IMG/VR virus record: IMGVR_UViG_2671181106_000001
Strand: one strand, 5' to 3'
Origin: a virus
Taxonomy: Duplodnaviria > Heunggongvirae > Uroviricota > Caudoviricetes
Length of the DNA: 7,942 nucleotides
How positions within the stretch are numbered: position 1 is the first letter of the stretch; each line of letters starts with the position of its first letter. The position numbers and the translations under genes are program-made. The notes under the pieces were generated by a model. That model was not told the origin of the DNA. It did no database searches and saw nothing but the letters and a program-made list of their open reading frames with translations. Shown one piece after another: positions 7,792-7,942 of this stretch.

Positions 7792-7942
7792 ATGATGATT
7801 TGCCCACTGTGTGGAAGTGCCGCCCATACTCGCAGCAGTTTTCAGGTATCTTCATTTGTCAACGACGGATGAAAAGTGATCCACTTATATCTCCACCAAC
7901 GGCCCAATATTGATCCACCGTTTTACTCAGGATTAGCTTCTG
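7792..7942 (+). pseudogene. ogr: ogr-like zinc-finger late-gene activator, apparently disrupted; intact reading frame is only 26 codons (7792-7872)
   Basis: N-terminus MMICPLCGSAAHTRSS matches P2 Ogr (MFHCPLCQHAAHARTS, first Cys pair of the zinc finger), but the frame stops at TGA 7870-7872 before the second Cys pair. Weak Ogr-like similarity continues in the +1 frame (FRYLHLSTTDEK against P2 RYITDTTKERY), which then also stops, suggesting frameshift decay around the T-run at 7839-7842. GGGGAG RBS 10 nt upstream. Position directly after D is as in P2. Confidence 0.5.

Follow-up and report, generated by a model that had tools for sequence, protein, structure and literature searches.

IS100 in codon 22 of the late-activator gene ogr of a P2-like Escherichia coli prophage

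A copy of the IS21-family element IS100 lies in codon 22 of ogr in the viral DNA analysed here (IMG/VR record IMGVR_UViG_2671181106_000001; the whole stretch of 7,942 nucleotides is hereafter called the window), with its genes directed away from ogr, a target duplication of 5 bp and the four-cysteine motif of the encoded protein split into two halves. The prophage is P2-like, integrated next to ybjL in E. coli, and of a common type. Taking all lines of evidence together, we consider it very likely that a simple transposition of IS100 into codon 22 duplicated TCATT, split ogr and cost the prophage the self-activation of its late genes. Prophage genes are commonly disrupted by IS elements, a well-known route of prophage inactivation, so that no conceptual novelty attaches to the allele; ogr::IS100 is a real but ordinary feature.

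The ogr fragment and its break point

The four late operons of phage P2 carry TGT-N12-ACA and depend on Ogr, a zinc protein of the form CX2CX22CX4C (PMC3931495). The right end of the window is composed of the following features:

7702..7791, + strand, D-ogr intergenic region of 90 nt, identical to that of the intact prophage, with a GGGGAG ribosome-binding site at 7776-7781
7792..7856, + strand, ogr 5' fragment, consisting of codons 1-21 and two bases of codon 22
7852..7856, no strand, TCATT, left copy of the 5-bp target-site duplication (in the public assembly described below, TCATT abuts both IS ends)
7855..7872, + strand, junction codon and IS-encoded tail FVNDG, then TGA at 7870-7872, from the translation
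7857..7942, - strand, terminal 86 nt of IS100 (IS21 family), istB-proximal end, beginning with the terminal TGT; the window ends here

The open reading frame at 7792 (ATG ATG ATT TGC CCA CTG TGT...) translates to MMICPLCGSAAHTRSSFQVSSFVNDG and stops after 26 codons at the TGA at 7870-7872. Its Ogr-like N-terminus, which the sequence-only reading had recognized together with the first cysteine pair and the early stop, was borne out by the translation and by a match to Pfam Ogr_Delta (PF04606) of 28.9 bits over profile positions 2-21 of 47 (cut-off 26.3 bits), the intact allele scoring 78 bits over positions 2-47. The motif CPLC, encoded at 7801-7812, is the first zinc-finger pair (C4 and C7), and the 26-aa product as a whole consists of 21 true Ogr residues followed by FVNDG.

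In E. coli STEC1587, ogr is intact (72 aa, WP_000972391.1), and its start agrees with 7792-7856 at 65/65 nucleotides. In the alignment, the whole of 7702-7856 equals STEC1587 base for base, the T-run at 7839-7842 included, and all similarity is lost from 7857 onwards. The same break, exactly at 7856|7857, was obtained when 7300-7942 was compared by megablast with a set of 5,426 complete genomes of E. coli, in which more than 1,000 prophages match from 7300 up to 7856. All of these have 'phage late control D' annotated, with 'ogr/Delta-like zinc finger family protein' as the next gene. Past the break, the intact allele continues ...TCA TTG ACC AAA GAG... and encodes 72 aa with cysteines at positions 4, 7, 30 and 35; the native sequence following TCATT in the intact gene, GACCAAAGAG, is absent at 7857.

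The position of the fragment is that of the family, with D ending at 7701 and ogr starting at 7792, followed in relatives by attR and ybjL. The four cysteines that define the family (CX2CX22CX4C in one polypeptide) are not present together in the window product, which contains only C4 and C7 before its stop and is therefore a disrupted family member; C30 and C35 are encoded by another ORF on the far side of the IS. When all frames were checked, none in the window encoded the second pair, in line with the earlier claim that no continuous frame holds it. The accompanying claim that residual Ogr similarity passes into another frame does not stand: local alignments of the three frames of 7857-7942 to Ogr (with the homologue from E. 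coli and the Ogr of P2 as references) were no better than those of shuffled sequences, 95-433 of 500 shuffles reaching the observed score, and the DNA is that of an IS100 end (86/86). The resemblance between STTDEK in frame 2 and TDTTKE of P2 is one of chance.

A promoter scan of the D-ogr spacer returned one weak sigma-70-like match at 7727-7754, and a sigma-70 promoter for ogr in this spacer was rejected, the matches of the scan not being above chance. The longest ORF over the locus (7728-7913, + strand, 61 aa, TTG start) is an unsupported frame-3 read-through from the spacer into ogr and IS100. A protein from the Logan assemblies (P0027) begins in the frame of this TTG ORF and continues in that of Ogr from codon 22-23 on, a sign of a 1-nt indel variant or of an error elsewhere.

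The IS100 element and the distal half of ogr

All 86 nt of 7857-7942 are the same as at one end of an IS100 copy of E. coli E1433, which carries the RefSeq annotations 'IS21-like element IS100kyp family helper ATPase IstB' and 'IS100 family transposase' and has a 5-bp target duplication of its own (CATAT). The stop of istB is the complement of 7923-7925 and its last 5 2/3 codons are the complement of 7926-7942; the window end is thus istB-proximal, and the direction of the IS genes is the reverse of that of ogr. The ends of IS100, TGTCAACGACGG...CCGTTCGTGACA, have TG...CA termini, its terminal inverted repeats are imperfect (20 of the first 27 positions match, by manual count from the alignment), and a GATCCAC motif is repeated close to the end. 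With a 98-nt query containing the IS end (7845-7942), 5,818 matches, situated at the end of elements annotated as above, were obtained in 2,968 of the 5,426 genomes; plasmids hold 1,533 of the matches, and the maximum per genome is 25.

The complete structure was found, by exact look-up of the window's D protein, in a 4.49-Mb contig of E. coli GCA_014103515.1, a part of which (L007) is identical to window 2601-7942 at 5342/5342 positions. The order of genes there is D, istB and istA (both on the minus strand), a 62-aa Ogr_Delta ORF, attR and ybjL. The IS is full-length (1,954 bp) and differs from the E1433 copy at 15/1,954 positions, which is nothing unusual; both of its genes, which fall outside the window, are intact and point away from ogr (istA, 340 aa with HTH and rve domains; istB, 259 aa with IstB_IS21). 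TCATT is present on both sides of the element, the window having the left copy alone, and the inserted element agrees with IS100/IS21 in every character tested. Past the IS, 1,954 bp on and outside the window, lies the unmutated remainder of ogr, its 3' two-thirds, and in silico removal of the IS and one TCATT copy restores exactly the 72-aa Ogr, the same as that of STEC1587 (L001) and of three other loci (L004-L006). A continuous ORF of 70-80 codons, which the sequence-only reading had thought an extended sequence might reveal, is not present in L007, and the disruption is therefore genuine.

A GTG in the istA-proximal IS100 end opens the 62-aa ORF (L007 7181-7369; MWITIAPFVT+SLTKERY...), in which 10 IS-encoded residues are joined to Ogr residues 21-72 and only C30 and C35 are present. 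NCBI annotates this fusion as an ogr/Delta-like family protein, although it is without the first cysteine pair.

In GCA_014103515.1 the tail-fibre segment has the other orientation and one base differs from the window, so this is probably a sister isolate and not the same assembly. Because the window stops inside the IS, the distal junction of its own genome is read from this identical public assembly.

NCBI has the distal fusion ORF under four accessions (KSY10376.1, KXL05075.1, MBA7817500.1 and MCF4012549.1), which together cover 15 contigs of E. coli, the identical 26-aa stub has been deposited once (MFH2341218.1, E. coli, on an 8,022-bp contig), and the ogr::IS100 allele is present in at least 15 public E. 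coli contigs. The ogr-IS100 junction was found in none of the 5,426 complete E. coli genomes and in none of the deposited phages, the exact junction had no matches in GTDB representative genomes or JGI metagenomes, and the allele was absent from 80 related viral contigs. An exact look-up of a 37-aa GTG-start version of the stub returned no record.

Several other explanations of the break were weighed. The sequence-only reading had offered a sequencing or assembly indel in the T-run at 7839-7842, by which an intact ogr would be falsely frameshifted, and to this we assign a next to negligible probability: since intact alleles have the same bases throughout up to 7856, in the T-run as elsewhere, a homopolymer indel is ruled out, what changes at the break is the sequence, which becomes that of IS100, and not the frame, and no frame past 7856 shows any Ogr similarity. 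A naturally short gene distinct from ogr can be dismissed altogether, given the identity of all 65 nucleotides with the ogr start, the complete 71-72-aa Ogr after D in 78 of 80 related IMG/VR loci (the other two being cut by the contig end after both cysteine pairs) and the uninterrupted D-ogr-attR stretch found at ybjL in about 1,125 of the 5,426 complete E. coli genomes.

The remaining two explanations concern the repeats at the window's ends. If the contig end were chimeric, the prophage would be misjoined to a repeated IS100 end and ogr would really be intact; the window is indeed bounded by two repeats (that of the invertible segment at its left end, IS100 at its right end), as is typical of short-read contig ends, and the contig on which the 26-aa stub was deposited is short (8,022 bp). 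However, the entire IS is spanned by an independent contig of 4.49 Mb, in which the 5-bp duplication matches and the two halves of ogr are collinear, and the distal junction ORF is found on 15 contigs from several submissions, which makes a chimera highly improbable. An IS100-mediated deletion or inversion could alternatively have occurred in the window's own genome, so that the distal part of ogr, attR and ybjL would no longer be adjacent. This is compatible with a window that ends inside the IS, with up to 25 IS100 copies per genome and with the large deletions ending in D or ogr in other members of the prophage family, but we regard it as improbable too, as the only public sequences with the junction show a simple insertion with target duplication.

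The late genes and their predicted expression

To the left of ogr, the window contains the following features:

74-99, hix/gix/cix-like crossover site, TTCTCCCAAACCAACGTTTATGAAAA
155-721, serine DNA invertase (Resolvase and HTH_7) of 188 aa, ATG at 155, just left of the FI promoter
770..787, + strand, TGT-N12-ACA dyad placed like the Ogr-dependent late promoter PF, with 77 nt between it and the start of FI
864..7701, + strand, intact P2-type late tail operon FI-FII-E-(E')-T-U-D, presumed target of Ogr (Pfam: sheath, tube, TAC_7, tape measure, GpU, GPD)
2873-2879, TTTTTTG, conserved P2-type -1 programmed frameshift heptamer near the end of E, with the E' frame open to 3052
6601-7701, + strand, gene D

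The tail operon has the P2-like order FI-FII-E-E'-T-U-D, a Pfam match for each gene and a -1 frameshift site in E. Its FI, FII, E, T, U and D proteins show zero amino-acid differences from those of the intact STEC1587 prophage, with which window 73-7856 is collinear (18 substitutions, no indel). The earlier picture of a decayed ogr next to an intact target operon was thus right in that ogr is not intact and the FI-D proteins are unchanged relative to STEC1587, and wrong in attributing the loss to frameshift decay, the damage being a clean IS100 insertion in codon 22.

TGT-N12-ACA has three matches in the window against 2.08 expected; enrichment of the motif was therefore rejected and, since its count is not above chance, only the position of the dyad at 770-787, the sole intergenic one, is informative. 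In the 10 kb upstream, as represented in the sister assembly, capsid, terminase, lysis, baseplate and tail-fibre genes have normal lengths, and at least 17.5 kb of upstream late genes look complete there.

Several other observations were made in this part of the prophage. Of the 18 substitutions relative to STEC1587, 14 cluster at 94-325, from the crossover site to the invertase N-terminus, and look like a small recombination patch, the remaining 7.5 kb having four. The -1 frame of E continues through the annotated GpE-family ORF, which overlaps the start of T. Window 1 to ~86 is the reverse complement of ~8354-8439 in L012, a further piece of the sister assembly, with 1 mismatch; the tail-fibre invertible segment is thus flipped relative to GCA_014103515.1, and this suggests that the segment still switches in lysogens carrying ogr::IS100. 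Between the tail genes S and V (L012 4036-4788, and likewise in L008-L015 and L022), relatives carry differing cargo, such as a 250-aa protein without Pfam match in the sister assembly, an FRG-domain protein, a protein with a weak Peptidase_U49 match and, in EC596, an AAA ATPase and DUF4435 pair. The slot is a variable accessory one, possibly serving anti-phage defence.

Under the preferred reading, that of a simple insertion, a full-length IS100 (1,954 bp) transposed into ogr codon 22 and duplicated the 5-bp target TCATT, leaving ogr in two pieces, the 26-aa stub with C4 and C7 and a distal piece readable as the 62-aa ORF with C30 and C35, neither of which can form the CX2CX22CX4C zinc site. 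The prophage would then be unable to switch on its own Ogr-dependent late operons, the FI-D tail operon included, and would produce neither virions nor lysis unless an activator of the Ogr, Delta, B or Pag type came from another element or the IS was lost precisely. With a FI-D tail operon that is protein-identical to that of an intact prophage, it is the self-activation of the late genes that has most likely been lost, judging from the biology of P2, and the head, tail and lysis genes should have no expression without outside help. Halling and Calendar reportedly made, in 1990, an ogr deletion of P2 that requires ogr or delta in trans. As Delta of P4, an Ogr homologue, also activates the late genes of P2 (PMC8628076, PMC7552001), the prophage could be driven in trans, and another Ogr/Delta homologue elsewhere in the genome could compensate for the loss.

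For annotation, this means that a "short ogr" of the kind seen here is an IS-interrupted gene whose other half lies one IS-length away, and neither a point-mutation pseudogene nor a sequencing error. In prophage prediction, the structural gene set looks complete, yet such a prophage should be scored as unable to self-activate its late genes. It might still act as a helper if a satellite or a second P2-like phage supplies the activator.

Other breakpoints in ogr and comparison with known systems

Four E. coli Ogr fragments from the 90%-identity cluster of the fusion ORF (P0002-P0005) have four different foreign N-termini and one shared junction nucleotide, equivalent to 7846|7847, at which they join just before S20 (codon 19/20), 10 nt upstream of the IS100 site. 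For P0002 the junction (L018 5028|5029) is that of a deletion in a decayed prophage, by which a truncated tail-fibre-assembly gene is fused to ogr codon 19. Three contigs (L019-L021) begin 3-5 nt downstream of the equivalent of 7846|7847, dozens of draft contigs have starts only a few bases away from that point, and 98 index blocks list the partial protein P0023. We nevertheless think it unlikely that ogr codons 19-22 are a recurrent breakpoint and not the site of a one-off event. If they were, the cause could be a site-directed process, or selection could repeatedly have favoured knock-out of the late activator, and such knock-outs would lock in a prophage with a working tail-fibre invertase and cargo genes; alternatively, the knocked-out prophage would be kept only as a helper that is switched on by the Delta of satellites.

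As regards the origin of these junctions, 7846|7847 has no resemblance by eye to an invertase crossover site, and a hand translation of IS1 ends, which is weak evidence, gave none of the foreign peptides. The short peptide of P0003 matched prophage DNA by chance only. The N-terminus of P0005 weakly resembles an off-frame portion of a P2-like portal gene (71-81% identity, E 0.007 to 1). Rearrangements of other kinds were seen in the same region: in L022 (E. coli EC596, 6217-6944) the invertible segment runs directly into the final 39 codons of D, ogr being intact, in P0047 the start of FI is fused to ogr codon 36, and in a Shigella allele (P0024) the N-terminus is replaced at codon 5. Large internal deletions are carried by other members of this prophage family.

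The intact allele shares with P2 Ogr, 186 B and P4 Delta (PF04606) its position after D, as the last gene before attR. Its product is 55% identical to P2 Ogr and 54% identical to 186 B, and Klebsiella phage ST512-KPC3phi13.2 has the very same Ogr (100% identity). Unlike P2 Ogr, 186 B and P4 Delta, the window keeps only residues 1-21 in frame and, since the IS separates the second cysteine pair from the first, its product cannot be a functional member of the family. Defective prophages with lost or disrupted genes have been described in E. coli O157 Sakai (PMC2669165). As in those prophages, one essential function is gone here while the structural genes are kept, and other resident elements may rescue the prophage; unlike in the Sakai prophages, the damage that can be seen consists of one clean insertion into the late-activator gene.
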